From Microbotryum violaceum (taxonomy: Eukaryota), in the NCBI GenBank assembly GCA_001244265.2, contig CDLV01000007.1:1736001-1800000 (forward strand): a stretch of 64,000 bases of DNA, given 5' to 3'. Below the pieces are notes generated by a model. It saw only the letters and a list, made by a program, of their open reading frames with translations, had not been told where the DNA came from and did no database searches. A program made the translations under genes and the position numbers. Below, piece by piece: positions 23,003-53,248 of the stretch. Numbering within the stretch: position 1 is the stretch's first letter; each line of letters begins with the position of its first letter.

Positions 23003-24231
23003 ATGGCGCCCCACTTTTTCAAGCACAAGTCTGATCATCACCACCATAACCAAAAAGCCGAGGATGATCTGAGCTCGCAACTCTCCCGCTTGACCAGTGG
23101 CGAGGACACAGCCGCGAACCACCCAACCTCGATCCTCTCGACCGGCGGCACCGGCAGTGGCTCGACAACACCATTACCACATGACTCTCTCGACCAGGAA
23201 GACAACGACGATGAACAACCGGAAGGTTGCGGTGGTGTCCCCGGATCGAGTTGCCGTTCCAAGCCACTTCGACCAAAGGAATCTCGGATGCCGAGTAGCG
23301 GCGGATCGTCTTCGAATGGCGGTCCGAGTCTGACCCACTCGGACACGATGAGTTCCACCTCATCCTCGTCCTCTTCTCACCCCACTTCCGGATTAAGCAC
23401 ACATGGATCGTCTTCTTCCTCCTCCAAACACTCCTCCTTGGCTCTCTCTTCCTTCGTCAAAGGCCATCACGGCTCCTCCCACTCGGGCAAACACTCGTCT
23501 TCTCCAGCTCCAGAACCTTTCATCCTCCCGAGGGATCCGATCGCCTTGTGTGAAGCGGCCATGTCCTCGATTCTTACCGTTCCTGGCCCGCCGATCGAGC
23601 AGTTGAAGAAGGAAATTTGGCCCCAGTTGTTCCACATTGCGTGAGTTATCGGGATATTCATTTCGAGAAGATTCTCGAGGTGCTGACTGGCGCAAACGTG
23701 GGATTCGAACAGCTACGAGCATCGTGTCAATACACGAGAAGTCAACTTGGATGGCTTGGTTGAGATCGTTGAATTCCTCCGAGGGCGTTACCAAGTGAGT
23801 AGACCTCCTACTGCCGATCGTCTCGAACCGAACGTGTAAAAACTGATATGCCCATTATCTTATACACAGTCCGCAAGGCTCCGGTTCCGCTCGCACTTGA
23901 TGGACATGGACGGGACAGCGTCGATGAAGCGAGCTGCAGTCGCAATCGTATACGAGATCATAGTCCAAGTCAAACATCCCATCACACCCCATAAGCATCA
24001 CAGTCATATTGACGAAGTGTGAGTGTTCCTTTACCCTGCTGGCTGAACAAGAGAACACGCGCTGATTTGCTCGTCCATCGACCTGATCCTTCCAGTCGTA
24101 CCTCCGCCATGGGCGTCGTCAAGATTTTTGAGGGGAGGTTGGCTCAATCGGATTTGGTCATCGACACGGCGCCTCTGCAAAAAGCGGCCACATCGGAGAA
24201 CCAACCTGATTTGTCCTGCACAATCATGTGA
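23003..24231 (+). CDS. Uncharacterised protein: Ser/His-rich disordered N-terminus, compact C-terminal domain, C-terminal CAAX (CTIM)
   Basis: Four exons splice in frame through GTGAGT..CAG introns (donors at ~23641, ~23795, ~24019). Product ends ...SENQPDLSCTIM*. Confidence 0.75.
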
Positions 24232-25244
24232 TTGATATTCGGGGATGATTTTGAATGCTATCTTTCTAAGCGTGAGATAGAATTCGAATGTACTATTCTT
24301 GTGTCCTATTTCGAGCAAATCAGTTCCGCTGAAGGTGACTGTAGCAAGTCATGTGTACTTGGATAATGAAGCGCGGCAGAGTTGCAGCAAAATGGTTACG
24401 GAAATGGCTGAAGTGCGCGGCATGAGATTGTCGGACGACTATCGAGCTACTCCTGGTGGTCTGAGAATCGCACAAATGGCGAGTTGTTCGATCCAAGACA
24501 GCATGCGGGATCGGGTTTTCGCTGAAGAGGCGCCGCCGAGCCTCTCTCGCTCCGCTTTCAGCCCAACGGACTTATCTTTCAAGGGCACGCCACTCAGACT
24601 CTTGGGACCATTGAAGATTCACTTACTCACTGTACCAATCTCATGGGAAGCGGGCCGGAGGGTGGCGTAAAGTGTGGACACTCCGTAAGGACGGCCGGGG
24701 AAACCGTCTACTATACTTGAACAGAACACTGCAGTCGCCCTCAGGGGGCCTATCAGCATGGATCCGGAGCGAGCAAGATCTTGGCCAATATAAGAGCAGT
24801 AGAAGGGATATGCAAGGAGGGCGAAGGTACTAGATCTACAGTGAATAGCCATTGTGTGTGCGGATGAACTTCCGATGAAGTCGTACGAGAACGTATTGTG
24901 TTTCACGAGCACCGCCGAAGACGTCGCGATTCGTCGCACCCGCCGCAGTTGCCAACGAGTCAACGAGGTTGAACGTTCAGCGGCCGGCATATATTGCCAG
25001 AGATACGAACGAAGGTCATGGTCAGCTTTGTACAAAGGAGCGGAGCTGGTGCTAGTGTATCAAGGGTCCGCATTAGATCTGATCTGATCTGGCGGGGGTC
25101 AGATCAAGTTCAGATCAATCCCTGAAGTTCTCTAGAGCTGAAGGTTTGTTCAACGAAAATTGGGAGCGCGAGCTGAGGAAATTGATGACAATCTCAACAT
25201 TAGTAATTCTCGCTGGCGGGGAGCGGCTCTGGTCGGGCGGGGTG

Positions 25245-26409
25245 GTGCTAGCGGTGATGGACTTTGAAAAGGCTTACGATCGTCTTTTCCACACGTACCT
25301 TGATGCAGTCCTCTGCGCCGTTGGCCTCGGCCCCAAAGCCCGCCAATGGTACCGAGCGACCTACACCAACCAATCCGCTTTGGTCTTCCTCAACGGTTGG
25401 CTCTCTGCCGCTTTCGACATCCTGTCGGGCGTTCGGCAAAGGTGATCCTCTGGCTCCGTCTCTCTTCGTTCTGGCGATCGAAGGTTTTGCCTGTCAGATT
25501 CGATTGAGAGTCAAGGGCATCGACATTGCGGGCCTCCAAAACATTCGAAAACTCCTCTTTGCCGACGACGCTTGCTGCGCACTCCACAACCTCTCGGACC
25601 TCGACCACCTCAATCGAGCGATCGAGCTTTACGAACGGGCAAGTGCCAGCAAGCTCCGCAACAACAAATATTTCCTCTACCCCCTTGGAGCGTTTCGGGA
25701 TCGGCCGATCGCCCCAGATCTCGGGACCTGGCGTCTCAACGATTCGCAGTTTCGCTACCTTGGTATTCAGGTCGGGGTGGAGATCGCCGAGGATGCGGGC
25801 TGGGAAGATGTCAAGGCCTCGACCATCGCTCGGATACGCTCAATTCCGATGTACCATCTCCCATATGCAGCCAAGTGTTCGATCATCAACATCTACTGCT
25901 ACACAAAGATCCTGTACTACAGCCGATTCCTCCCCGCCCCAAGAGCGTTGTCAAGGAGATCGAGGAGGCCGCCATGCTCGCCATTCACGGTCGAGCTTCG
26001 GATGGTACTCAGCGACGTCCGAAAGTCTCCCGGTCGCGCCTCTGCACCCCTCTCGATCACGGCGGCTTCGGCTTGATTGATCTACCTCGGCGTCTAGCGA
26101 TCGATCACGCGAAGTGGGCCTTCTAGCTCCGGGCCCGGACGGCTGCTTCACACGCCACCTCTTCGACATCCGCATCCACCTCCAGGCACCGAACGAACCA
26201 ACCCCTTTCACCTTGTCCAGACCGGCCCCCAACCAGCATCCTCGCCCTTGGATCTGGATCTGGTAGGCATACTTTTTCCATCCTCCCCCAAAGTGGGAAC
26301 ATGCGGTAAGAAAGACGACAAAACTTCTTCCTGCTCGTTGGGTCCAATACTTCGAAGCCTGGGCATTGGTGACCACGCTTAACCCCCGGAACTCTCCAAG
26401 AGCCAGAAC
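25245..26409 (+). mobile_element. L1/Tx1-clade non-LTR retrotransposon 1, 5'-truncated RT portion (frameshifted)
   Basis: DFEKAYDR, SGVRQ/GDPLAPSLF, LLFADD, FRYLGI, GGFGLIDL motifs. Confidence 0.88.
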
Positions 26410-26693
26410 TATTAGAACCTAAAGCCGAGGCACGAGATACGTATAGTACGAGAGCCGAGGATGATAGTAAAGACAGTTCGGTATTGCAAAGTAACTAACC
26501 TAAAGCCGAGGCACGAGATACGTTTAGTACGAGAGCCGAGGATGATAGTAAAGACAGTTCGAGAAAGAAGAGAAGCGCAGAATAGGAGCGCGCGAGGCAA
26601 GCAATAGCCGCGCGAGGCGACTAATATCAACAACTAGTAACTAATCGTGATCGGTAATAGAAGTGGGATGAAACAGCAATATATACTCTGACA
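26410..26693 (-). mobile_element. Copia LTR (solo-type) with an internal ~80-bp tandem duplication
   Basis: Reverse complement of the split LTR at 34970-35038 plus 37425-37558. Starts TGTCAGAG and ends ..CTAATA on the minus strand. Confidence 0.9.
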
Positions 26694-28312
26694 ACGTGCT
26701 CGTGCTGTAGGGCGGGTTCCTTAGAGTGCTGCCAGAACCCGCGTCGATGACCAACCAGAGCCCAGCCCTTCCCTTCGTCCCTCCAGTACAGGTCCGCGAT
26801 CTGCGCAAACTTCGCCACTGCGTCCGCATCGTCATACGCGTACTTGACATCTTCGGCATAGAGTGAAGGGAGGCGAGGCGGAAGTGAGAGCAATTCGGGA
26901 AGCGTCAGGAGTTTGGACTTGATGGTTGGTAAAGTGACCCTGGCCGCTGCAACGACTGCCCCCAGCGCGTCGAGTCGCGGTAAAGCTTCTCGAGCCGAGC
27001 CGTGCTGCTGAAGAACCCTCACGGACTGAAATCGCGGGTCGCAGCGACGAGGGACCTCCAGCTCTCGCGAGCTAGGGGCGCCCAGATCGCCTCGTTCGAG
27101 CCCGCCACAGCATCCCAAAATCGAAGCGCCACCGAATGAACGATGTCGCCGACCGAAATCAAGCCCAAGCCACCGTCCTCCCGAGCCTGGAACACGAATT
27201 CGCGAGCGACGGTATTTCGCCCTGCTCCTCCCCAGACAAAATCCGTAAGTGCTGTCTCCGCCGCCTTAATGAACCATTGAGGCGGTATGTCGAAGGACAG
27301 CACGTGGAGGACCGTCGAGATGATGTGAGCGTTGGCATAGAACACCTTCCCACTCGGCGAAAGTGTCCGGTCTCCAGCGGCGGGGGTCTTGGCCTTGATC
27401 CTGTCAAGAACATGGGTCCAAAACAGTTTCGAGTCACCGTGGCGAAAGAAGGCATAGCCGCACCACTTGAAGCTCTCCCCCTCCTGCACCGTTGGCAGCG
27501 CCTGCGCAGTCTCGTCCCGAAGCCAGTTCGGTCCGAGTGGTAGCACCAGCGTCTTGTCCGTGTTGGTCTTCCCGTTGGTTGCCTCGTACCACGTCTGCGA
27601 CAGCGTTTCCAGCTTCGACAATGCCGCCGGTGACTCCACCACCACCACAGCATCGTCGGCAAACGCGAGATGCGTAAGCTGCGCACGCGGCCCCCCTGGC
27701 CACACCTTCTGCAGGTCGAGCGCGATCCCGCGCCGAACGAGGGCGTCGAGGAAGGGCTGGAACGTGATGTTCCAAACCGGGCACGAGAGGGGATTCCCCT
27801 GACCGAGACTACACAGCAACCGCACCAAGTCCGTGGGGAACCCACTGACAAGGTAGCGCACCCCCAGAGTCTCGGGATCGTAGAGAGCACGCAGCAGCGA
27901 GATGAAACGCTCACCGAACCCAAAAGCCTCAAAAACCTCGAAGATCCAGGCGTGATCGACCCGGTTGTACGCGCTCTGCTGATCCAAAGACAAGAGGGCA
28001 CCCTCGGGGAAAACTTCAGTGCCTAGCGACTTGAGTTTTTCGAGAAGGAGAGTGAGATGACTTCCCGCGTCTGCTGAACGTCTTGATGGCATGAAACCGT
28101 GTTGCGCCGGCGGCAAAAGCTCGCCGAGCACCCCATTGAGTCGCGCCACCAAGACCTTGCTGAGGACCTTGTAGGTCGTCTCGCGCAGTGTGATCGGTCG
28201 ATATGCCCCCAGTGATTTCAGATTGGCCCCCGGTTTGTTCTTGGGCAAAAGCCGCACCAGCCCCTCTGCCAAGGACGCCGTCATTTTACCCCCCTCCCAA
28301 ATCGAGTTGAAC
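26694..28312 (-). mobile_element. L1/Tx1-clade non-LTR retrotransposon 2, RT portion
   Basis: LLPKNK..YRPITL..YKVLSKVL, QHGFMPSR, LDQQSAYNRVDH, GQGNPLS, LAFADD, DGGLGL motifs in ORF 27019-28440. Confidence 0.9.
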
Positions 28313-28339
28313 AACCCTAACCCTCGATTGGGTTGAAGA

Positions 28340-31091
28340 CTGCTGCTGTAACGCCGGACTCGATCCAACTCGTCAAAACCTGTGTTCCCTGTCATTTGGG
28401 AAAAGATGTTGCGCAACGATCCCACGCTGCCGCAGGGCACCGCGCAACCGCTCCCTTTGGTCGAGTCTTCATGGACCTTTGGGGCCCCGGTCCAGTCGTG
28501 GTCATCGCTACCTTTGCGGTGGTATGGATTAGTACTCTTGTTATCGCTGGCTCTGTGGTATCACAGCGAAGAGCAACGCGACACGTGCAATTCAGGACCT
28601 CGTTGCGTTCTCATGCGTTCAGTACCCTGGCTCGTCGTTTCGAACGCTCGTGACCGACCGCGATGGGGAATTCGTCAACAAGCAGTTAGACGGCTGGCTT
28701 GCGTCACGGGGTGTTGTACATGCGCTATCGGCGCCATACAAACACGGTCAGATGGGCTTGCAAGAACGTTCCTGGCGCTCAATCTTTGACAAGGTCCGCA
28801 CCTCTTTGGCCCAATCCGGCCGGCCACTCTTCCTCTGGGAAGAAGCTGCCCACGCCGCCGTGTACGCCCTCAACCTGAAGGCAACCCCTGTGCTTGACAA
28901 CTCAACTCCGGACTTGGTCCTACACGCCTCCGGCGACCCCGTCGCCGAACATCGTCGCCCACGCGGATCCCGCCTCCGTGTTTGGGGCTGCCGGGCGCTC
29001 GTCCCACTACTACCGGAACAGCGCGGGCACAAGCTCGCGCCCCGGTCTCGTCACTGCTTCTTCGTTGGCTACTCGCAGACGTCTCAAGCCTGGCGTTTTT
29101 ACGACCCCGCTCGCCGCAAGGTGTTCGAGTCGTCTCAAGCCACCTTCTTCAAACGGGAATTCGGCCGGTCGCACAACGCGACGGAGATGCGGACGCTACG
29201 ACGATGGACCGGTCCTATGCACAACGACGGTTCGTCCATCGCCGCGGCCCCGAAGACACCATTGACAGTGACGATACAATTTCTGAGGACTCGCTGCCCC
29301 TTCTCAGTCCGCCCCATGTGTCCGTCGCCGAGCAGCCTGTGCCTCCTGTCCACGGCACAGCACCACCACCGCAGGGGCTTGCCTTCAACAACCCGGGACC
29401 AGCCTGGTCAGCTCCGCTCGGCGATCGATCGTCTCGTAATTGTGGACCTCCAGAGCGCCTTGGCGACTTCACGATGGCGGCGACAGCCGTCACCGAGTTT
29501 GCTGTCGAAATCATCGACTTCGAATGGGCCTTCACCACCCGCCCAAGCCCTGACGCCCCGACATATTGGGAAGCAATGTCGAGTAAGGACCGGGAAATGT
29601 GGCTCCTGGCGATCAAGACCGCAAAGGCCGCGCTCGCAGCAAAGGGGACGTTTTCTTTGCTGCTCTTCAATCTGCCACCCGGCACACCCATCATCAAGAG
29701 CAACTGGGTCCTCGCAATCAAACGCGACAGCGAAGGCCGCATTGAGAAATACAAGGCTCATCTCGTTGCTCGCGGCAATATGCAAAAGGCTGGCCGCGAT
29801 TACAAGGAAACCTTCTCGCCCACCGGTCGCGCCGCTTCACACCGGCTCCTGCTCGCTTTGGCTGTCGAGAACGAGTGGGAAACCCGCCAATTCGACGTCT
29901 CTTCTGCATACCTCAATGGGGAGATGGGCAATGTTGCTGTTCACATGGAGCTCCCGGACACGTCGGTTGTCCGCTTGCACAAAACCCTCTACGGCCTGTG
30001 TCAAGCAGGTCGGGAGTGGTACAAGGTCTTCGCGGGCTGGATCGCGTCAATCGGTTTTGTCCGCACCGAAAGCGATCACGCTGTATTTGTCAAGTCCGAA
30101 GGGGCGCGCAAACTGTTCCTCTCCATCCACGTCGACGACGGCCTGCTTACCGGTGATGGCGACCTCGATGGCTTCATCCAACAACTCAAATCTCGTTTCG
30201 AGGCGAAAAGCTCCGACGAGGCGACCTTCTTCCTCGGTCAACGCATTCTCCGGGATGGCAAGACGGGTGCAGCGATCGTTCACCAGCCCCACTTCATCCC
30301 ATCAATCCTGGAAGACCACGACATGGCGGGATGCAGTTCAAGGTCGACACCGATCCCGCTCTACAAGTCACACCTGCGTAAGGACGTCACTTTCGACGCT
30401 TCGACAAAGCCGTGCCGCACGATCGTCGGCAAACTCCTCTTCCTCAGCGGAACTACGCGGCCTGACATTGCCTTCGCTGTATCAAAGGTTGCATCACATT
30501 GCAACAACTTTTTGCAACAGGATTGGGAGGCTTTGTTGCACATCCTCCGATACCTCAAGGGAACCCGAGACGTCGGACTTCTGTTCCGCAAGGCGGAGGG
30601 TGCTCCTCTCCTCAAGGGCTTTGTTGACGCCGATCACGGAGCGGACCCGGAGACTCGTCTAAGTGTCACAGGTTTTGTGTTCCTTTGCGCGGGTGGCGCG
30701 GTCTCGTGGATGTCCAAGCGACAGGCGCTCGTCACCGTATCCAGCACCGAGGCCGAGTACATTGCTATGTCGTTTGCTGCGCGCGAGGGCATCTGGCTTC
30801 GTCGCCTCCTTGCCGAGCTCGGCTTTGCCCAGAGCGAACCAACAAAGCTTCATGGCGACAACCAGTCGGCAATCCAGCTCGCCAAACACCCAGCCTTCCA
30901 TGCTCGTACTAAGCACATCGACATCCACTTTCACTTCATCCGAGACCACATTGCCGAGGGTACGATCGAGATGGTCTGGATTCCCACGAACAAGATGGCG
31001 GCGGATGTCTTGACCAAAGGACTCGGGTCGCGGAAGCACTGGGATTTTGTACACGCGATGGGTTTGGTAGATGCATTGCGTGAAGGGGCGA
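28340..31091 (+). mobile_element. Ty1/Copia pol fragment (integrase-RT-RNase H), frameshifted, no gag or protease
   Basis: CVPCHLGK, VFMDLWGP, TDRDGEF, QMGLQER, LRVWGC, YKAHLVARG, FDVSSAYLNG, LHKTLYGLCQAGREW, IHVDD, FVDAD, SSTEAEY, RTKHIDIHFHFIR, ADVLTKGL. Purine tract at ~31082-31092. Confidence 0.93.
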
Positions 31092-31369
31092 GTTGGAAGG
31101 AGCGACGAGCGGTCGAGGAGGTCTGTGCGGCATACACGCGAGTGCAAGAGGGCCTGAATAGAATTTGATAGGCCTGATCCCGCGCGTGACAAACTGGGTC
31201 TTTTCCTCACGTTTGGCTCTGCATCGGATCAGGTGTGTACTTCGCGTATTCATGCCTCAATGTGTTAAATGATTAACTTTGACATTTGGCTCTGCATCGG
31301 ATCAGTCCATTGTTCAACTCTCGAGACTGAACACACAAAGTGTACCCCGAGTCAGCCTCTATAATAAAA

Positions 31370-32896
31370 GAGAAAAGGGCAAATTGTAAGGCTCGGTTGC
31401 CTTACGCTATTTAACTACCCTTCTGATTTCAATATGCATCTATTGAAATCGTCAGTATTTTGGACCGTGTAACCTAGTTATTTGATCTCTAATGGCTGTA
31501 ACGGATGAATGAACGAACGATAGGGCCATCAGAGATTCGTCTAATCATGCTTAGAGTATCTCTAAGTCTGGTGGTGGCGGGTGTAAGGCTCGGTTGCCTT
31601 ACGCTATTTAAAAGACTGACGATTTCAATAGATTACCCCAGGCCCTTCACAACTAGGTTACACGGTCCAAAAGACTGACGATTTCAATAGATGCATATTG
31701 AAATCAGAAGGGTAGTTAAATAGCGTAAGGCAACCGAGCCTTACACAAATCTGCCCTCGAAAGATAGCGAAAGGACAAAAATGCCCTCGCTTCTTTTCAT
31801 GAGGACAGAAATGCCCTTCTCTAAAGGACCAAAATGCCCTCGGATTCTCGACTTCTGTAATACTTGATATATCAGCTCATAACCACGAAGGTAGGTTCTT
31901 GTAGTCGTTGTGATCAGCACCGTATACTCAGAATCCCCAGAGATGTCGTGAGAAGCCAGTTATCACGGTCGCAAGCCGAAAGCGAGCGATGAGTATAGAC
32001 CGCAGTGAATTTCATATGAAACAGGCCAGCATGCCTTCAACTTGTAGTAACATTGACAGTCCTGACACCTTTTGCTCAGATGCAAATGGTCTATCTATCT
32101 ATCGCATGTAACTCGGTTGTGTCCGGGCCTTTGCAGAGACCACAGATCGTGTCGCGCTTGGACCTCTCGTCCGCACCCTGGATCCTGCGCTTGATCCGAC
32201 GTCGTGTACGCGTGGAGAGATGTGACGGAATGATAATGACACCCTCTTCTTCGCCAGTTGAGTCACTATCGTCCACTTCACCATACCTCATGACGCTCAC
32301 GAGGAAGACAATGCAGCTTCCTTTCGGCCCGAGATGGAACTGGTTGGAGCGGTGTCGCGTAAGTCTGCTCTTGCTGTCGCCGGTGTGCAGCTGCGATCGG
32401 TGACTGTGGGCTTCATTAAAGACAATGATGGTCCAAACACTGCATTCTTCTTTGGAGACAGCAATGGCAGAGAAGGAGCACGGAGGATATTGAACACTCT
32501 TGCTCACGACGCATGTCAGACTTGCGAATGTCGCTGAAACTGGTGATCAAGCGCATATTGATGGCCCGCATCTGTCGATGTCGGGGCGAGAATGCGGAAG
32601 GTGGCCAACGTCGATTCGTGAACTCGCGCGTCTCGACGCGTCGACGATCGATGAGGACCCCTGACTTTGCGACCGTGATAACTGGCTTCTCACGGCATCT
32701 CTGGGGATTCTGAGTATACAGCGCTGATCACAACGACTACAAGAACCTACCTTCGTGGTTATGAGCTGACATATCAAGTATTACAGAAGTCGGGAATCCG
32801 AGGGCATTTTGGTCCTTTAGAGAAGGGCATTTCTGTCCTCATGAAAAGAAGCGAGGGCATTTTCGCTATCTTCCGAGGGCATTTTGTCCTTTTCTC
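31370..32896 (-). mobile_element. Non-autonomous Mutator-like element (MULE) with internally deleted transposase
   Basis: ~230-bp TIRs starting GAGAAAAGG (left TIR 31370-31974, interrupted by the MITE; right TIR ~32667-32896). 9-bp TSD ATAATAAAA (31361-31369, 32897-32905). Internal minus ORF joins a WRKY/FAR1-like CSF..WTIIVFNEAHSH segment to a C-terminal CGLCKG knuckle remnant. Confidence 0.9.
31385..31745. mobile_element. 361-bp fold-back MITE with TG..CA termini, inserted in the MULE left TIR
   Basis: 95-bp TIRs (31385-31479 and 31651-31745, one mismatch seen). 5-bp TSD CAAAT (31380-31384, 31746-31750). A third partial TIR copy at 31582-31611. Confidence 0.92.
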
Positions 32897-33689
32897 ATAA
32901 TAAAATCTAGTAGTAGGTAGGCTGGCCCTCTAGGTCGCTCCGCCGATGGACCACGCGAATCAGTGTCTGCAGCACGCCATTTGGCATTCCTCGAAATCAA
33001 ACGTGGTAGGTGTGGGTACCACGATGTCATTGGCTGTGCTTCGCTTGAGATGTAGCCACTCTCGCATGCTGGACAACGCCCAGCGCATGAAGACAACAGA
33101 ATACCCAAAAATAATTATGTAGTCTTTGATCGCCGAGAGAGTAACCCTGCAAGTTGTGAGTCTGACAAACAATCTGCAGTTGTTCCAAATTAAGTTTGAC
33201 GTTGGACAAGACGAGCTGTTGCAACGAGCACCTGATCACTAGATCCCCGTCAAGCGAATGCGAGGAACCAGATCTGTTCAGTCCATGATAAGTGCACTGT
33301 ACTCGTTCGCCATGTTGGCAAGAGCGACTGCCTCTTGTCAAGCCAAGCTCCCAGATGCTGTCCAATGAGTCGCAATGATGACTCGGCGTCGGGATGCACG
33401 ACTAAGACACGTGAACTTGGAGAGATCGACATCGCCGCAGGGTGGGTGGACATAAATGCCACTTGATACCAATGACTAGTGTGTCGGACCGACTGAGCAC
33501 CGTTCGTGACTGATGAACTACTCCACGGTGGAGGAGGGTTGTACCATGAGCTACTGAGATGTTGATGTTCGCACACAGCTATCAGACGGGCCGAAACGCA
33601 CGCCTAAGTACAGGACTTTGCACTCCGGCCATTCGCCGCCGTTCCGCGCCGGTCTGTGCAGGTCTGTGCCGGCTTTTGCCGGCTGGCTG

Positions 33690-33885
33690 TAATGTTGAGA
33701 CCGTCGTCAATTTCCCAAACGCGTCCCAGGCCGCTCCCCCGGCATTGAGACCGTCGTCAATTTCCCAATCTCGCGGCGCGCCCCCAGGCCGCCCCCCGGC
33801 GCTGAGATCGTCGTCAATTTCCCAAGCTCGCGCCGCCGAATTTTTCTGGAACAAACCTTCAGCTCTAAAGAGATTCAGGGATCTT
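33690..33885 (-). repeat. Repeat block with three tgaga(c/t)cgtcgtcaatttccca units, related in inverted orientation to 25117-25200
   Basis: Reverse complement atccctgaatctctttagagctgaaggtttgttc..gaaattgacgacgatctca aligns by eye with atccctgaagttctctagagctgaaggtttgttc..gaaattgatgacaatctca at 25117-25197. Confidence 0.75.
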
Positions 33886-33899
33886 CGGAAAAGTCGGAG

Positions 33900-34664
33900 G
33901 GAATGCTGTTACACACACTGGCAGAAGCCAGTAGTGTAGGACTCATTGACCCTGAACCAGGATCAACGATACCCACTAAAACCCCCTTTGGTGTCTTACA
34001 GAGACACTAGGCGACCCTTGGACTCCTGAATAGAGGCTCGAAGCCCCTCGAACTCCGTTTCGGTGACCGGTTCCAAAGGATCCGACGAGAATCGGCGACG
34101 GCGACAGAGCTTCCAGATCGAGTGAAAGAACAGCACTCGTAGTTCGACAAGTCGACGTTCCGAGCGAGACACGACCGGACATACAAAGTCCACAAAGACT
34201 GGGTGGGGGGTCGGGGACAGAGCAGACCAGAGACGCCGGGCCAAAGGGGCAGCCGACCGCGAGGTGGGCCAGGCACTCGGGTGCTTCCGAGAGGCACATC
34301 ATACAGGAGGCAGATCGATTGTTGGGGTGCGGGCTGGTTGGGGAGGCGACTTGGCTTCCCGGATGGCGGGACCCCAGGGAGAGAAGGTGGCCGGTATCCT
34401 CGGCGTCCGAGTGAACCCGGCGAACCTTGCGCAAAGCCTTCCACCAAGCGTTCCAACGTTGTTCAGGCAGATCAAATACCTTCTGGTGTCCATTGGGGAA
34501 GATAGGAGGGAAGATGAAGACTTGGTGGCGTTTGGACGCGTTCACAAACGAAGACGGGGCCATCACCTCGCCATCGGGCCCTCGAAAAAGCGTTGGGTTT
34601 ACCGAGAGTTGTATTCCTTGGCCCACTGGGAAGAAGAGTACGTGCGTCGCCCATTGCTCGAGGT
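33900..34664 (-). mobile_element. 3' part of L1-clade element 1 (zf-RVT-type C-terminus and 3' UTR), displaced by inversion
   Basis: CMMC..ECLAHLAVGCPF and FFHSIWKLCRRRRF. After removing the two LTRs the frame continues from 26409: PPELSKSQNL|EQWATHVLFFPVGQG. Confidence 0.85.
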
Positions 34665-34961
34665 TTTCACGGTTTGTTCTCTAGTGGAATCTGATGATGA
34701 CCACGACTCAGTCCAATGAACAGGGACGAGAACAGAGTGTAGGATTCCAAAGGAGCTGACCTGATGATGACCACGACTCAGTCCAATGACAGACTCGCGG
34801 AAGGCTAACTGTTAAAGCGCTGCAATAATAGAGGAACTAAGGAGACAATTAGCTAATAGCTGGGATATTGAAATACCAACGGGCCAAATGAAGGCACGTT
34901 GGGCTCAATCCTAAGAGATGTTGTAATTGGATGAGGACGGTGAAACCAGCTATCCTTGACA
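34665..34961. mobile_element. Solo LTR of another family inserted in L1 element 1
   Basis: Minus strand reads TGTCA...TGAAA (likely TGACA with one change). 5-bp TSD GAGGT at 34660-34664 and 34962-34966. Internal direct repeat ctgatgatgaccacgactcagtccaatga occurs twice. Confidence 0.8.
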
Positions 34962-34969
34962 GAGGTTCT

Positions 34970-43807
<8,838 letters not shown>

Positions 43808-44785
43808 CGTGGCTCCGCCTGTTCCCATTTGGACCCGGAGAACATTCTTGACCTGCCCAATTACAGTCAATGTTATGCCGAGGTCCGGGAGGGGCTTTTT
43901 ACCGGTCGCATGTACGCCAAAGAATATCCCACGCAACTCCCCGTGACTGTTGATGAGCACCCTGGGCAACTTGCACAAGGATTTCCCACACTGGGGAGTG
44001 GGCACCCTGGGTGAAGGTGATCTATGTGCGGTTGTCTGCACCGTCGAGGCTCGCATTTGGAGGCACAGGTCCTCTGGCAAACCTTTTGTGCATATTGCAT
44101 GGGCCTGGTGTAGTTTCCCTGTCTGATGTGCAGCCGATGACACACCAGACCACACCCCCGCCGACAGTCCGCAGTCCCAGGCGGGTCATCACCTCCCCTG
44201 TCAAGTGTTTGGCAATGGACGCCAAGCTGAATGCTGACCTGTGGAGCACCGATGGTCACGAGGATGAGTTCAATCCCGCAATTCCCCACTAAACCTTTCA
44301 TACCAGCTGACGAGTTTGGTTACTTGGGGGTTCAACAGTCACTGACAACAACAATAATCCGGTCCACGCGCAGGCGAAAGAGGCCGCCGACAATGATCAT
44401 GAATGAAGTCTGCTTCGGAACGCGCGGCTGGCTCCTACCGCAGGACCGGAATGGGTCATGCTTGATTGGTCTCAAGCGAATGGCGAGGAAAAAAAGGGTT
44501 CCTGGACCTTGTTTAGACAACGGAAACGATATATATGTCTGAATGAGGATAGACAGAGAAGAAAATTGAAATGAAATGCAGTCAAAATTGAATGTAAGGT
44601 GTATTTAATTTGTTGTTAGAGTCTCTAGCCTTGTCTTGCGGTGGTTATTCGCCTCTAAGTAGGAGGTAGTGCCTATCCTCGGGCCATAGTTGTGAGTGTG
44701 ACTTTATAGAGAGCGCTGGAGGTTCAGGGAGTCGGACTCATCGCCGCCCCGCGGTGCGTTAATCTCAAGCCTTGAGGAAAAAAAA
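43808..44785 (+). mobile_element. Probable degenerate 3' end of a LINE (possibly L1 element 2) ending in an A8 tail
   Basis: Decayed coding-like segment (..VEARIWRHR..), AT-richer UTR-like stretch, A8 at 44778-44785. Orientation fits L1 element 2 once the 8.3-kb inversion is undone. Confidence 0.4.
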
Positions 44786-45069
44786 CCCCAAAAGTAGGCG
44801 GTACCTGAATCCTGGATGCTGCCATCGTGGTTTGGAATGCCAACTGCGGCGCACCTGATCACTGCATTGCCATCTGCCTTCTACCATTGCCGCCGCATTG
44901 GGTGTTGGCCCCGTGCCACAGGAATACTACAGGGTGTGGTCCTCCTCTGATGGGCCTTTGTTGCAGTGTCAGGTGCTGACTCATTGCAAACACTTTCTCA
45001 TTAGGATCATGCGACCCAATCCAGTGATGAAAGCGGGGAGCTCCTCCAAAAAGCGGCGGCTTAGCAAGG

Positions 45070-48000
45070 CCCATAGCAAAAAAGGTGTAAGGCCCGTGCG
45101 CCTCGGCCTTAGGAAGAGGGGACGCGCGCCTGGGCACTCTTAGTCTCTCTCCAGCGACTGATACGAGTGTCCAGGTGAGCACAAGGTGGATCAGAAGGCA
45201 TTGTCATACCAGCGACTGATACGAGTGTCCAGGTGAGCACAAGGTGGATCAGAAGGCATTGTCATACCAGCGACTGATACGAGTGTCCAGTGTCAATTCT
45301 ACATACTTTGGTCCTGTGATCCTTGTCGTCGTCGCTGAGGTGTACACTCCGAAGTCGTCATTGGCGACGTGCTGATCAATCAGGCGCTTCCAGGCTTCCC
45401 GGTAACGGTGTGCCGCTCGATAACCCTTCAAGTTCGGTTTTGTTGCTCCGTCCTTCAGCTCGATTCGGTGTCGGACCGGTGATTCATACGTCGAAACCGG
45501 AGGAATATCCCCCGGGAACCGATCCGCGAACTCGACCCGTAGCTTTGCCTCCCGCCGTCGCAACTCCGTCAACTCCGTTTCCCTTTGCTGGACCCCGTCG
45601 ATGCAGGCAATCACTGCACGCCAGTTGATCCGAGCTTTATCGCTTCGTTTGGCATTCCTCGCCGCGGCTCGCTGGGGGTGGGGTCCGAAGACCGGCGCAA
45701 GAAGGTCGATCTTTACGTCAGGCATGGTCGGATGTGGCACCAGGATCTTGTGTGCCGCGAAGTCGATGGTAACCTTGTGTTTTACAAGGAAGTTGAACCC
45801 CAGTACCACTTCCAAGGGCTCCTGCAGTTTAGCCACCTTCAGAATCGTGTGTCCCGCTTCCCATGCGCCATTCTCGAGCGTGATCGGAATCTTTACAAAC
45901 GAGGTAACATGAAACGCGCGTGCTTGGTCTTTGATTGCAGTTTTGACCAATGTAGGAACAGGGAGACGATGCATGACTAACCCCAGTTTCTCAACCACCT
46001 TATCTGCGATAAAGGAGGAAGAGGCCCCAGAGTCAGCAAGTGCCTGCAACGTCTTTGACTTCGTGTTGTTGTGCAGAGTGATGGGAATGGTGGAGATGAA
46101 CTGAGGGGCGTACTCGTTTTCTTCGTCCGTTGAGATGTCGTCTTCTGAGTTTTCCGCAATTTGATGGAGGGTGTCGTTCTTAGCCGCTTTCGCCGTCTTC
46201 TTTTCGAATTCGGCCCACCCCTCCGGGACATCCGGTGCCTGCTGCCAGTTGGCTGTACAGTCGCTCGCGCGGTGATCCGTGTTGATGCGTCTGCAGTTAA
46301 AGCAACCCTCCTGCTCATCGTCCGAGCTGTCCTCCTTTTCCTCTGGCGCGGATGATGGCGCTGGTTGGGCGGTGGATTTCTTGCCACGCGCCATGTTCGT
46401 CCGTTACCGTTCGTTGTCGTTCGTTCGTTCCGCGGGTGTGTCGCTGGCGCACGTGGCAGTGTGCGTCTTTGACCGGTGTGAAAAAAAAAGTTGCGACGGC
46501 GGGAGGCAAAGCTACGGGTCGAGTTCGCGGATCGGTTCCCGGGGATATTCCTCCGGCTTCGACGTATGAATCACCGGTCCGACACCGAATCGAGCTGAAG
46601 GACGGAGCAACAAAACCGAACTTGAAGGGTTATCGAGCGGCACACTGTTACCGGGAAGCCTGGAAGCGCCTGATTGATCAGCACGTCGCCAATGGCCGCC
46701 TTCGAAAGTCGTCATCAGAGTTCGCGTCCCCGGCGTTTGTCATCCCAAAGAAAGGTATGGATAAGGACCCGTCAATCCAACCACGCATGGTCTGTGACTA
46801 CCGAGTACTCAACGAAGGGACGGTCCGAGATCGCACACCTCTACCACTTCCGGACGAGATTCTGTCGGTCTGCTCAAACGCGCGATTCTGGGGGAAGATC
46901 AACATGACAAACTCCTTCTTCCAAACCAAGATGGCCGAGGAAGACATCCGGAAGACGGCGATTGTGACACCGTGGGGATTGTACGAGTGGACGGTAATGC
47001 CAATGGGACTCTGCAACGCCCCGGCAACGCATCAGCACCGAGTCAACGAGGCACTCGGAGACCTTATCGGGAGCGTGTGTTTCGTGTACCTCGATGACAT
47101 CACAATCTTTGCCGACACCTTGGAGGAACATGAACGACGGGTGCGACTAGTCCTGGAGGCGCTGAGACGGGCGGATCTGTACGTATCGCCGAAGAAGACG
47201 GAACTGTTTGCTGCCGAGTGCTTTTTCCTCGGCCACCAGATCACTCGGGAAGGCATCAAGGTCGATCCTGACAAGGTGGAGCGGATCCAACAGTGGCCGC
47301 GACCAAGGACGGTGAAGCAATTGCGGGGATTCCTAGGTCTGGTGCAGTATCTGCGGAAGTTCATCGACAAGCTTGCGGATTTGACGGCGGTTTTAGTCCC
47401 GCTGACACGGAAAGGGGTGCATGTCGACGAAGGCTGGACGGGAGAGCACGACAAGGCGTTTGAGGCAATCAAGTCCTTGGTGGGCAACCTTCCTTCTCTA
47501 CATCCCATTGACCATTCCGACAAGGGCGACCCATTATGGCTGATGACGGACGCGAGCAATCGGGGAATCGGGGCGGCACTCAGTCAAGGAAAGCAATGGC
47601 AGACGGCCATGCCGGCAGGCTATTGGTCACGACAGTACAACCCAGCGGAAGGCAACTATGCAGCCCACGAGATGGAATTGCTTGCAATTGTGGCCGCCCT
47701 TCATCACTGGCGGGCGGACCTTTTGGGTGTTCGATTCAAGATCCTCACAGACCACCACTCCTTGGCGGGCTTCATGAAGCAACCAAGCCTTTCACGACGA
47801 CAAGCTCGATGGACCGAACGACTGGCCGATTACGACTTCGAGATTGTATATGTACGAGGTCCAGAGAACACAGTGGCTGATGCATTGAGTCGTTACTCTT
47901 TCCCGGAGGAACCCACAGCCGGCCGCCAGGCGAGCGACAATGTCAACGTGCTGGCGGAGGCAACTCTCGATCCTGCCTTCCTTTGCAAACTCAGGGACGG

Positions 48001-51000
48001 TTACCGCAAGGACCCGCAATGTCAACAAGCTATCAAGAACATTGACTCAACACCAGGCTACTCAGTCGACAATGGAATCGCACGGTTCGAAGGACGGATC
48101 CTCCTGCCAAAGACGGGGAACTTTTGGGAGGACGCGCTACATGACGCGCATGATGCCGCAGGCCATTTTGGACTACACAAGACGTATGAACACCTACGCC
48201 GCAACTTTATCTGGTCGGGAATGAAGGATGCATGCAAAGATTACGTTGAGTCCTGTGCTGCTTGTCAGACAATGAAGATGCATGGCACCGGTTTTGCCGG
48301 TCGGATCCACAATTTGAATGTGCCTGACCGGCCAATGCGGGAAGTTGGCCTAGACTTTGTCGGGCCACTTGTACCTAGCAATGGTAATGACGCACTGCTT
48401 ACGGTAACAGATCGCCTTTCAGGCTACGTTTGCCTCATCCCCTGCCGCACGACGGACGACGCGACTACCACGGCGGACCGGTTCTTTGAGGGGTGGCATC
48501 GACACTTCGGCATGCCACGAGTGCTGGTCTCCGACCGCGACAAGCTCTTCACAAGCGAGTTCTGGCGAGCGTACATGGGCCAGCTGGGAACGAAACTGGC
48601 AACATCGACGTCTTTCCACCCACAAACGGATGGCCGAAGCGAGTGAACAAATCGGACCGTGATCCAAGTCCTGCAAACAATGGTCAACCGACGGCAAAAT
48701 GACTGGTCAAAGCACTTGGCTACGGTGGAGTTTGTGATCAACTCCAGTATGAACAGGTCGACGGGGAAGACGCCATTTGAAGTGGTACTTGGGTTCACGC
48801 CGGAGCTGACACCGATCACCCCAGTGGAGGGCTCAACCACGTCACAGGCAGTCAAATCCATCGTGGAACAACGTGAAGCAGCGGTTGCGGAAGCCCGAGA
48901 CAATTTGGCAATTGCAAAGATCCGACAGGCCAACCAGAGCAACAAGGCGAGGAAACCGGAGCCCGGGTTTGCAGTTGGCAACATGGTCTTAGTTGACTCG
49001 CGGGATCGACGACTGCGGTACAAGGCCGATGGGGAAGCACGGTCAGCCAAACTCTTTCCCCGGTTTGACGGCCCCTACGAAGTCCTAGCAGCACGACCCG
49101 AAACCTCAAATTACAAGCTGAAGCTCAAGGCGGGGGACAAGTCGCACAACGTCTTCCACGCCTCCAAGCTCCGACGCTGGGTAAAGAACAATGGGGTGGT
49201 GTTCCCAGGACAAGAGGCAACAGAACCAGCGGCCATTATCGTCCAAGGAAACAAGGAGTGGGAGGTAGAACGGATTGTGGACGAAAAGGGGAAGGGGTCA
49301 AGGAAGAGGTTCTTGGTGAAATGGAAGGGGTGGGCAGACAGCGACAACACATGGGAGCCATGCTCACACCTGGAAGGCACCGCAGCGTTGGAAGAGTGGG
49401 AGAGTGGGAAGGCGGGGGGAGGACAAGGCAAGGAGGGAGGGTGTAAGGAGGGAGGGGAGTTTGGTTTAGGTGGTGGAGAGTGTAAGGCCCGTGCGCCTGG
49501 GCCTTAGGAAGAGGGGACGCGCGCCTGGGCACTCTTAGTCTCTCTCCAGCGACTGATACGAGTGTCCAGGTGAGCACAAGGTGGATCAGAAGGCATTGTC
49601 ATACCAGCGACTGATACGAGTGTCCAGTGTCAATTCTACATACTTTGGTCCTGTGATCCTTGTCGTCGTCGCTCAGGTGTACACTCCAACGGGGTGTATT
49701 ACAAAAGGTGGATATTTTGAGGATGGCTTTGGGACTGGGACTGGGACGGGGCCGGGATGGCTGTGGGGTGGCCGAGGGATGGTTGCCATCCTGGGATGAC
49801 CGTGGACAATCACAGCGCACTACCAGAGTTGGGCGCCTTAACTCTGCGACCATCCCGGGACCGTCCTGGGACCGTCCCCGCGACAGGTGCACCAATGCTG
49901 GGACCGTCCGGGGACCATTCCGGGACCCGCACCGATCCTGGGATGGTCCAGGAATTGACAGCGGTCTGGGCACGGTGCTGGGACGGCGCGGGGATAGTCC
50001 TGGGTCCCAGGATGATCCCGAGATGGTGCCAGGATAGTTGTGGTATCGATTAGTAGACAATTTAAATGTTACTTATGCATACTCGTAATGCTTGATTCAT
50101 TTGTAATCACTTTTGCGGTCGTTCTTTCGCTGGAATCGGGTGCGGTTTTCACATGCAATACAGTACAAGGCTAAACAAAAAAGGCAATATGACATCTGCT
50201 ACTCAAAACTGCTCTAGACGCGCATACAAGGCACCTACCGGAAGTGGTGGCTGCGCCCAATGACGGCCAACGCTTCATTCTGTCTGGGGCCAATAGAGCG
50301 TGTCAATGGCCTGCTCTATGTTCGAGACTTTAGTACTAATAGCTAGCAAGTAGCCGAGAGAGAGCGATTGACCCAGACCTGCTGCTATGGTAAGCTGTCG
50401 GAGACATTGTCAGTGAACCGCGAGCGAGTCAGCTGAGCCCCTGACTCCAAGGCTCTGATGTCGAAAAACGACCGAGCGGCTCGAAGATGAACCGGCGGCG
50501 ACTCACGTTGGGCCATGAAGTGCATTTGTATGATTGGTGTTCTGTACGAAACTAGTTGATGGTCAGTGTATGGCCTTGAGCCGTCAACAGCCTGGCGGAG
50601 GCGTAGGAGGCTCACTATGGTGTCCAAACAAATCTAACTACGACAGAGATGGAGAATTGACAAGCCTCAGCAGGAACATCAGCAAAGCTGGAAGCGAAAA
50701 AAGGAGGGAAGAAGAGCTTCAAACGAGGTCGGAGGTGCTGGGACGAGAGGGAGAGACTAACCCGAATCGGCACAGGGGCTAGCCAGTCAGCCCATCTGGG
50801 GAAGGAACGTAAAGCCCACCAGAGAGCAAGTCAGCTAGGCAAAGTATTGCAATCATGGATAGAAGATTCGTTAAGTGGAGAGTGAATCATACCACACACT
50901 GTACAGTCAACAGTCGAATGGCAACGGGCGGGAGTGCGCAGACAGAAGAAGTCCCGCCCATTGAGACAGGAGAACCGTGCACAACAAGGGTGACGACACT

Positions 51001-51947
51001 CCGGACGGTGGGTCGGGGAGCCCGTAAGGACCTTGCCATTTGCTATTCACCTGATGACTCGGTTGTTCAACCCGTGCCGGTGGGTTTGACAAGTGGTGGA
51101 TAACCAAGTGAGGGTAGTAGCAGCATGCAGGCGAGGTCAAGTCGAGTCAGGTTGACCATGAACGTGGCCCGTCGGTCGCACCATCAAATCGCCCGTACCA
51201 AACATGCCCATGGGCAATAGAGTACGAAGGCAAGAACAGTCCTTCATCATGAGTCAAGGCTAACCGGTGAGTAAGGGTCAGCGGACGTCGCCTCGCCGAT
51301 GATGACTGGGGACCCTCTTGCAACTGGGTGAGCGAGCGCGTGAGTGGAGCAGAGGCAAGGACTGTTAAGACCGACTCGCGTCGGCTGTCTTGTCGTGTCT
51401 TGCTCGGCCTTTCTCCTCCTTTCTCGGCTCGCCCCTGCTCATGCTGGACCCAACCCCAGCTCAACTGCGGCCGTCGTAATTCACGGCAATTGCAATCCAT
51501 ATCTTTCATCTGTACTGCGCATGCATACCGAGCCGTCCTTTGGACCCAAGGGGTAGAATTTCTGCACATGCTATACAAGCCCTACATCATGCCTCTAACT
51601 AGCCGGAAGCCTATGTATTCTGGTACACAGTCAGCACCATCCTGGAATTACCTCCTACTCCCGGTACCATGGGCGATTACACCAGAGTTCCAGAACCATA
51701 CCCGGACTGGCAACCTAGCGCCGCCGGGACCGTCCCGAGATCATTCCAGCGTCCGACTTTCGATCCTGAGACCGTCCTGAAATTCCTTCCTGATCCTGGG
51801 ATGGTCCCAAGAGGGCGAGCGCGTGCCAGGATCGTCCTAGAATTGAGCGCCGAGCGCCGGGATGGTGCTGGGATGGCGCCGGGATCGTCTCGGCAGAGCG
51901 CGCACTCCCAAAGCCATACCAGAAATACCCCCGTTTTTTGCTATGGG
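45070..51947. mobile_element. Non-autonomous CACTA/CMC-like TIR element with subterminal repeats; left TIR interrupted by chromovirus B
   Basis: CCCATAGCAAAAAA at 45070-45083 and its reverse complement at 51934-51947. The left TIR resumes at ~49689 (acggggtgtatt..atggctttggga), matching the right end. Many gggaccgtcc/ccatcccggga-type repeats at 49730-50035 and 51700-51890. TSD not resolved. Confidence 0.72.
45086..49688 (+). mobile_element. Ty3/Gypsy chromovirus B with inverted, partly deleted gag-protease segment
   Basis: LTRs 45086-45350 and 49481-49688. Minus-strand knuckle and protease (LADSGA) at 45358-46490. Plus-strand RT (YLDD), RNase H, integrase, chromodomain [21 protein letters not shown]. 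Flanks differ at one base (aagg vs acgg). Confidence 0.95.
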
Positions 51948-53248
51948 TGACCACTTTGGAGGATGATGAGGATGAGGATGAGGATAATAAGATTGTAGAC
52001 ATGTAGAAGTCTCTCTGTGCCAAATTAGGCAACTTCATGTCTCAGATTAGATCAAGATCAGATCAATCAAGGCAGAATCAGAAAAATCAGATCAGATCAA
52101 ATCCGATCTGGCGGTGATCTGATCTAATGCGGACCCTTGTAGTGTATACAGCGGGTCCGACAGCGCGTAGGAGTCAGGACCGTAGGTACGTACAACTGTC
52201 CAATCGATCACTCGAGGACGCGGCAAACTCACAGTGGGCAGCCGGAGTCCGTCCAGGCTGCGCGAGTCGTGCGGAATCGTCGAGCACGTCTTCGACGGCG
52301 CCGACAGTGCAATTGTGGACCGCCGTCCGGACGAATTCTTCCACCCCGACTTTAGACAATGCTCCTGACCAACGGATGCATAAGCTATGCGCCACGAAAA
52401 GGTCATCTGGAGAGTTGTGGAACAGGTGTAGAAACAAACGATTTCAGCGCTGCAATAGGATGCTAGCGAGACTACTACTGGCCACGAACTTGAAGACGTG
52501 TGACGGCTCGGAGCGATTTTGGCCATGGAGCATGGTTGGTACCTTGTAACACGATGTTCCGTAACAGTAATATGCACCAAAAAGGCGCAACAACCGGTCA
52601 AAAGTGGTAACAATATGCAGACCGTGTTACCGTCGTCGATAGAACACACATGTTGCACACTAAGTTCGGAACCCCACGTAGCACGCAACGATTCTGTTAC
52701 GAATTCGTATCCCGTAACATGTGTCATATGGTTGTGACCCAGATATATTTGGCTGGGCCCAGGACGGGGGGACGGCGTGCGAAGGTTCGCGAACGTCTAC
52801 TTCGCTCTTTGGCCCCGTTTGGGTCCGTGGGCTATTCATATTCAGCCTTTCTGAAGGGACGCCGCGCCTACAACGGCACGCGCCCAAGTTCGCTGACGCT
52901 GGGGAGCGCTGGCGGAAGCTGGCAGCTGCTGGCAGCCCGGCTAACGCCCAGCGATATTACCTCCTCTGGGCCTTGCACCTTCCTTCACCCACTCCATCTC
53001 CTCCACTCACCCCTCCCGACCGTATCGCCTGCATTGTTCTGCCGATCGACCTGTGGTCTCGCGTGCCGCAGCTGGCGTCTCCCAGTCTCGACTCGGATCG
53101 ACTGGGGCTTCATCGCGTCTGAAGATCTGAAGTGTGTGGTCGCGCGTCAGTCGCCGTGTGTGTGTGAGGTGTGTTGGCGTGTGCGTCAGACTTCGGAGGG
53201 AGCTAGCGTCGAGCAGCCTCCTATCGGCCGGTCCTCGTCATCGCCAAC

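Follow-up and report, generated by a model that had tools for sequence, protein, structure and literature searches.

The window analysed here is a 64,000-nucleotide stretch of the genome of the anther-smut fungus Microbotryum violaceum (contig CDLV01000007.1, positions 1,736,001 to 1,800,000 of the forward strand). It contains a 27-kb nest of mobile elements enclosed by the two ends of one DNA transposon, hereafter referred to as the bracket element. The best explanation of this nest is that one non-autonomous hAT-like element, the founder, was inserted, grew in place by nested insertions and was then reshaped, and we assign a probability of roughly 0.8 to this reading. A preliminary description of the same DNA had suggested either that one founder insertion became a landing pad for other transposable elements, or that the intact ends could still move the whole cargo in trans. 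The former suggestion is supported by the exact 8-bp duplication shared by both sides, by the flank junction present in all four sequencing runs aligned, by the young long terminal repeats (LTRs) of two chromoviruses in the interior, and by an inversion and a deletion-type scar found there.

Ends and age of the bracket element

The terminal inverted repeat (TIR) of the bracket element, CAAGGGTCCGCATTAGATC, lies at 25061–25079 on the plus strand and at 52121–52139 on the minus strand, and the two copies are identical in 19 of 19 bases. The 8-bp sequence TAGTGTAT occurs exactly on both outer sides of the 27-kb bracket. Thus, the perfect 19-bp TIRs and the exact target site duplication claimed in the preliminary description are both present. 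When up to three mismatches were allowed, only two matches to the 19-mer were found in the 64-kb window, both of them being the bracket ends, while none of 100 shuffled controls gave two or more matches. Since the identity of the 8-bp flanks is expected by chance with a probability of only about 1.5 × 10⁻⁵, both ends are considered to derive from one insertion event.

The founder sequence left beside the left terminus amounts to 185 bp, because a long interspersed nuclear element, LINE1, starts at 25246 and the copies of its family extend 5′ of that position (loose contig ends in four of four runs). Beside the right terminus, 169–192 bp are left, depending on where the boundary of the neighbouring element is placed. 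Both regions are rich in GATC: this motif occurs five times in the first 100 bp and eight times in the last 100 bp of the element, against a window mean of 0.59 per 100 bp, and the right-end 100 bp form the most GATC-dense 100-bp stretch of the window. The GC content is 52–62%.

The left junction was also examined in sequencing runs. A search found part of this region in 21 public runs, and the contigs of four of them (X1, X9, X10 and X14) were aligned to 23800–27300 at a likeness of at least 85%. In all four, contigs of single-copy depth cross from the flank into the terminus, and no empty site was seen at the left junction among these four runs. The junction contigs of X1 and X10 (both covering 23800–25090) and of X9 (24636–25090) show 0 differences from the window; they end 30 bp inside the element, as is expected at a repeat. 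In the 1365 bases covered by the junction contig of X14 (23800–25164), 40 letters differ and 18 positions are gaps, and X14 represents an independent lineage diverged from the window by about 3%. The junction is present in this lineage, and thus the insertion is older than the split of about 3%.

The same runs provide information on the family to which the terminus belongs. Seven X1 contigs start exactly at 25061 and carry unlike upstream sequence (agreement 0.48). In X1, the summed word depth is 46 in the flank but 981 at 25087–25203; the corresponding values for X14 are 29 and 1431, the increase over the left end being about 20-fold or more in all four runs. It follows from the unlike flanks and the rise in depth that the terminus belongs to a real multi-copy transposon family.

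The age of the interior elements can be compared with that of the bracket. The two chromoviruses, A and B, have LTR pairs that differ at 3 of 175 aligned bases (1.7%) and at 2 of 207 aligned bases (1.0%), respectively. Such small differences suggest that the chromoviruses were inserted later than the founder, and the occurrence of younger LTRs inside an older insertion points to growth in place. In addition, the interior inversion and the deletion-type scar are what would be expected of DNA that has long stayed put, and the nest is presumably immobile at present.

The following course of events may be proposed. In a single event, a short non-autonomous hAT-like transposon would have entered the intergenic DNA that separates housekeeping genes, and TAGTGTAT would have been duplicated. 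Because there was no gene to disrupt, and because further insertions would do little harm at this site, other elements could have accumulated there: LINE1, Copia elements and a solo LTR, a second LINE, a small Mutator-like element with an insert of its own, a Helitron, the two chromoviruses and another inverted-repeat element. Later, recombination between two inverted Copia LTRs would have flipped 8.3 kb, and recombination or deletion at chromovirus A would have removed the rest of the Copia element C1. The flanks are indeed gene-dense, as had been noted before: among 31 flank open reading frames (ORFs), those for a MYST acetyltransferase, a proteasome ATPase, an AP-complex mu subunit, OGG1, a galactosyltransferase, Dad2 and SCC3 were found. 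The flank genes are eukaryotic housekeeping genes, and Dad2, a subunit of the DASH complex, indicates a fungal host.

Layers and rearrangements inside the bracket

The interior contains at least 13 other mobile-element pieces, which are stacked in up to four layers (Table 1). Pfam scans were made of 30 ORFs of at least 150 amino acids (aa), of 147 ORFs of at least 45 aa taken from the unexplained stretches, and of 18 whole frames in which stops were read as X. The domain families found inside are those of two unrelated LINE reverse transcriptases, two Copia families, Helitron_like_N and two Ty3 elements with a chromodomain. The preliminary description had listed at least eleven insertions of seven types, and the contents are broadly as it described; the type that it named "CACTA-like" is unverified.

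Table 1. Positions of the features that make up the bracket and its interior (a dot in the strand column: no strand assigned)
Feature	Positions	Strand	Remarks
Left target site duplication, TAGTGTAT	25053–25060	.	Identical to 52140–52147
Own left end of the hAT-like element	25061–25245	+	19-bp TIR (25061–25079) and GATC-rich subterminal region
LINE1a, 5′-truncated non-LTR retrotransposon	25246–26409	+	First ORF2 part; aa 522–882 of homolog P0021
S1, Copia LTR	26410–26693	-	Outer flank AGAAC at 26405–26409
8.3-kb segment inverted between two inverted Copia LTRs	26694–34969	.	
LINE2, second, unrelated non-LTR retrotransposon	26694–28560	-	RVT_1; ends abruptly at 26694
Copia2, 5′-truncated Copia element	28485–31033	+	Integrase, RVT_2, RNase H
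Non-autonomous Mutator-like element	31370–32896	.	TIRs of about 230 bp; 9-bp duplication ATAATAAAA (31361–31369 / 32897–32905)
361-bp inverted-repeat element	31385–31745	.	Inside left TIR of the Mutator-like element; 5-bp duplication CAAAT
H2, probable hAT-like element body, now inverted	32906–33882	-	Directly follows the LINE1 3′ end
LINE1b, remaining LINE1 ORF2 and 3′ untranslated region, inverted	33883–34691	-	aa 886–1111 of P0021
Y, unclassified 273-bp insert	34692–34964	.	Between LINE1b and the GTTCT flank
Copia C1 5′ LTR (34970–35038 and 37425–37562)	34970–37562	+	Interrupted by the Helitron; preceded by GTTCT (34965–34969)
Helitron fragment	35039–37424	-	Helitron_like_N domain; inside the Copia C1 LTR, between A and T
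Copia C1 gag	37563–38410	+	aa 1–283 of Microbotryum Copia polyproteins; ends at the chromovirus A LTR
Chromovirus A (Ty3 with chromodomain)	38411–43808	+	
U, unclassified non-coding stretch	43809–45040	.	Possibly hAT-like body; no domain
Unclassified inverted-repeat element (earlier "CACTA-like")	45041–51970	.	GGGACCGTCC subterminal repeats
Chromovirus B	45086–49687	+	Inside left TIR of the unclassified inverted-repeat element
Own right end of the hAT-like element	51971–52139	-	19-bp TIR (52121–52139) and GATC-rich subterminal region
Right target site duplication, TAGTGTAT	52140–52147	.	

The largest rearrangement concerns LINE1. When the LINE fragment 25258–26073 was compared with the whole library by HMMER, full-length relatives were obtained, the best long one being P0021 (1111 aa). 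Residues 522–882 of P0021 map to 25305–26386 on the plus strand, and residues 886–1111 map to 34677–33999 on the minus strand. LINE1 is thus split into two halves of opposite orientation that join seamlessly at the residue level, and un-flipping the intervening segment rejoins the reading frame. Other LINE1 copies, on contigs of X9 and X10, run on past 26409 into the sequence that is now inverted at 34691. The short flanks of the Copia LTRs are swapped in a corresponding manner: AGAAC is located outside the left LTR, while its reverse complement GTTCT is located inside the right LTR, and when 26694–34969 is flipped back, the solo LTR S1 gains a perfect 5-bp duplication, AGAAC. The split LINE1, the seamless join and the swapped flanks thus indicate an inversion of 8.3 kb, which appears to have occurred by recombination between S1 and the 5′ LTR of Copia C1.

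Several details of the elements around the inversion were also found. The insert Y is missing at the corresponding point of three LINE1 homologs. LINE2 family copies extend beyond 26694, loose ends "before" this position being seen in X9, X10 and X14. Near its 3′ end, S1 carries an 81-bp tandem duplication, with 65-nt units at 26416–26480 and 26497–26561 that are 98% identical; the sister LTR part at 37425–37562 does not carry it. Copia2 and the other Copia family share about 30% identity. When the ORF at 37567–38412 was used in a protein search, 19 hits were obtained, all of them Microbotryum Copia-type gene models (18 of M. silenes-dioicae and 1 of M. saponariae), with identities of up to 95%; this stretch is a Copia gag, and its assignment as a continuation of LINE1 was ruled out. 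Two further candidates were rejected. One is a Mutator element with long TIRs at 26409–26694 and 37409–37559: these are opposed Copia LTRs, which start with TGTCAGAG, and gag follows the right copy. The other is an inversion within Copia C1 as a single element with a longer LTR: there is no second copy of 34692–34964 in the window.

The segment H2, which lies between the Mutator-like element and LINE1b, is probably part of the founder body and is now inverted, as judged from its position and from a repeat that it shares with the left end. Its first 80 bp (33803–33882) are 84% identical to 25118–25197, just upstream of the LINE1 5′ junction, and in the original orientation this repeat begins exactly at the LINE1 3′ junction (33882 downwards). 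Two origins may be considered for the repeat: a long target duplication left by an old insertion of the LINE, or a repetition within the founder itself. No protein domain was found in the H2 frames read through with X. The copy at 33.7–33.9 kb contains three 57-bp tandem units. A second, one-ended hAT element with its terminus at 34010–34020 was also considered and ruled out: the 11-mer concerned lies inside the coding sequence of LINE1 ORF2, and about 5.6 such 11-mers with one mismatch are expected by chance.

Some elements were found to have been inserted into the ends of earlier ones, as the preliminary description had reported. The Helitron fragment splits the Copia C1 LTR between A and T, and its minus strand shows a 3′ hairpin followed by CTGG. 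A relative of this Helitron, with 81–88% identity across about 1.3 kb, occurs at 18117–20035 in the otherwise gene-dense left flank. A miniature inverted-repeat element within a TIR of a Mutator-like element had likewise been claimed, and this agrees with the 361-bp element, which is flanked by CAAAT and lies in the left TIR of an element flanked by ATAATAAAA. This Mutator-like element is 1.5 kb long, its arms of about 197–230 bp are 97% identical, and none of the 147 ORFs of at least 45 aa scanned gave a transposase domain for it. The 361-bp element has 95-nt inverted arms and the termini TGTAAGG (TGTAAGGC...), which resemble the starts of both chromovirus LTRs; its duplication is of the kind seen as if it had been inserted by an integrase.

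Chromovirus A has no target duplication (the flanks are CAAAC versus CGTGG/GTGGC), and Copia C1 breaks off where the left LTR of chromovirus A begins, with no continuation on the other side. From these two features, the flanks are considered to mark a deletion or a recombination between two elements. A search for a partner of the flank GACTCCTG gave only chance-level matches. Two extra segments were found within chromovirus A. One is an intron-like segment of 60 bp in the 5′ LTR (38514–38573), which starts with GTGAGT and ends with a 23-bp copy of the adjacent upstream sequence; exactly this segment is lacking in the 3′ LTR. The other is a 242-bp insert (38647–38888), which lies between exact 35-bp direct repeats of the LTR end (38612–38923) and begins with nine T (a poly-A on the minus strand). 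This insert may have arisen by retroposition, in which case its target duplication would be unusually long.

The preliminary description had also placed chromovirus B in a TIR of a "CACTA-like" element. The insertion itself was found: chromovirus B sits about 16 bp into the conserved TIR core CCCATAGC, which runs 45070–51947. The label was not borne out, for the element at 45041–51970 shows no CACTA terminus (its termini are TCCTCCAAA.../CCCATAGC...) and no matching flank of 2–9 bp. All four exact copies of GGGACCGTCC in the window fall within this element. The target duplication of chromovirus B is imperfect (AAAGG/AACGG). Chromovirus B also contains an internal inverted duplication, whose arms (45350–45565 and 46489–46704) are 97% identical; the protease is encoded on the minus strand between the arms, the plus strand encodes the reverse transcriptase, RNase H and integrase, and most of gag seems to be missing.

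Class of the founder and alternative readings

None of the three sets of Pfam scans revealed a transposase domain of the hAT, Mutator or CACTA type, nor a hAT dimerisation or BED-type domain, and the bracket element is thus regarded as non-autonomous. Its assignment to hAT is probable and is based on the 8-bp duplication, the terminal motif and the GATC-rich subterminal repeats. The termini of hAT elements follow the pattern Y-A-R-N-G, and the start of the TIR, CAAGG, agrees with this pattern. Short subterminal GATC repeats are present at both ends, as short repeats are in Ac/Ds. The preferred hAT target is nTnnnnAn, with T at position 2 and A at position 7; whichever strand is read, TAGTGTAT has the preferred base at only one of these positions, and this is a single site. 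The label "hAT" given in the preliminary description is therefore plausible as far as the duplication, the terminal motif and the subterminal repeats are concerned, while without a transposase it is indirect.

The bracket element may instead belong to another superfamily with 8-bp duplications, such as a P-like type or a Mutator/Merlin type with duplications of 8–9 bp. This would leave the single insertion and the growth in place unchanged. There is no transposase to decide the class, and the half-matched target pattern is compatible with such an assignment. However, the CAAGG terminus, the duplication of exactly 8 bp and the combination of short TIRs with short subterminal repeats, as in Ac/Ds, argue against it, and we consider a class other than hAT to be rather improbable.

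Another possibility is that the 27-kb nest is a competent substrate, in which both intact ends would be cut by a transposase of the family acting in trans, so that the entire nest would travel as a macrotransposon. If this were true, the nest would be a fungal macrotransposon able to carry 13 other elements to a new site. The perfect TIRs, the GATC-rich subterminal sequence of about 170–190 bp kept at each end and the multi-copy state of the family would suit such movement. Moreover, the available part of the maize study describes an Ac/Ds macrotransposon that moved about 100 kb of nested retrotransposons (PMC3260210), which may serve as an analogy. Nevertheless, the junction is at the same site in the lineage diverged by about 3%, neither another copy of the cargo nor an active transposase of the family is known, and the interior is slowly decaying by the inversion, the deletion scar and frameshifts. 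Movement of the whole cargo is accordingly judged unlikely, with very little weight left to it.

The weakest alternative is that the bracket is an assembly artefact or a pair of separate insertions of the same family resembling one element: the interior repeats are too long to be spanned by short reads, and the right junction and the interior lie outside the region with read evidence, but identical 8-bp flanks at two independent insertions would be a coincidence of the order calculated above, the left junction was recovered with 0 differences in three runs and with 40 differing and 18 gap positions in the fourth, and the internal arrangement is coherent, as the two halves of LINE1 and the exchanged 5-bp flanks match each other, so that we give it hardly any credence.

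Some points weigh against the reading that one hAT-like insertion grew in place. The superfamily is deduced from indirect marks, and no autonomous element sharing the terminus was found, a scan of metagenome contigs for the 19-mer having given 0 matches. The founder's own body (32906–33882 and 43809–45040) is placed by inference, and the 84% repeat flanking LINE1 is without a certain explanation. The flanks of X1, X9 and X10 are identical to the window, and these runs may come from the same strain or species, which leaves X14 as the independent witness of the age. Finally, the read alignment covered 23800–27300, and the contiguity and the inversion are taken from the assembly.

Comparison with known systems

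The nest is tidy but ordinary: it calls for no new mechanism and is a fungal case of a known kind. As a clean and datable case, it illustrates the seeding of a transposon nest in gene-dense fungal DNA, in which a tiny non-coding DNA transposon would have become a safe target and grown about tenfold. The perfect ends and the duplication form a fixed outer frame, within which the insertion order, the LTR-mediated inversion and the deletion can be read.

The closest parallel is found among the maize Ds and Ds-like elements. The available part of Du et al. (2011; PMC3260210) counts 903 Ds-type elements in maize B73, bounded by terminal repeats of 11 bp and duplications of 8 bp, and regards the short subterminal repeats as binding sites of the transposase in Ac/Ds. 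Like these elements, the bracket element is non-autonomous and has short TIRs, 8-bp duplications and subterminal repeats. Some Ds elements are also described there as swollen from about 0.4–1.4 kb to 12.7–24 kb by inserted LTR retrotransposons and DNA transposons: ten Ds1 elements are 0.8–24 kb long, with LTR retrotransposons inside six of them, and a Ds2 element was enlarged to 12.7 kb by the insertion of an LTR retrotransposon. As compared with the Ds elements in that part of the source, the bracket element differs in its fungal host, in its GATC-based subterminal motif and in that no autonomous partner is known for it. Its cargo is also more mixed, with LINE, Copia, Ty3, Mutator-like, Helitron and other inverted-repeat elements.

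The Ac/Ds macrotransposon, as far as it is treated in the same part of that paper (PMC3260210), resembles the nest in that two distant hAT ends surround nested retrotransposons, and it offers a model for movement as a unit. The difference is that its movement was seen genetically and used the ends of two elements, whereas the ends found here belong to one element.

For Microbotryum itself, the available part of a comparative study (bioRxiv 10.1101/2022.08.03.502670) regards annotated transposable-element copies longer than 10 kb as probably nested, and gives the average share of inverted-repeat DNA transposons as about 0.42% of the bases. The nest is also similar to the intergenic nested clusters of SanMiguel et al. 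(1996), as they are cited in the part of PMC3260210 at hand, in that the insertions are layered and the genes are left intact. Unlike in those clusters as cited there, the outermost layer here is a small DNA transposon that has kept its perfect ends and its target duplication.

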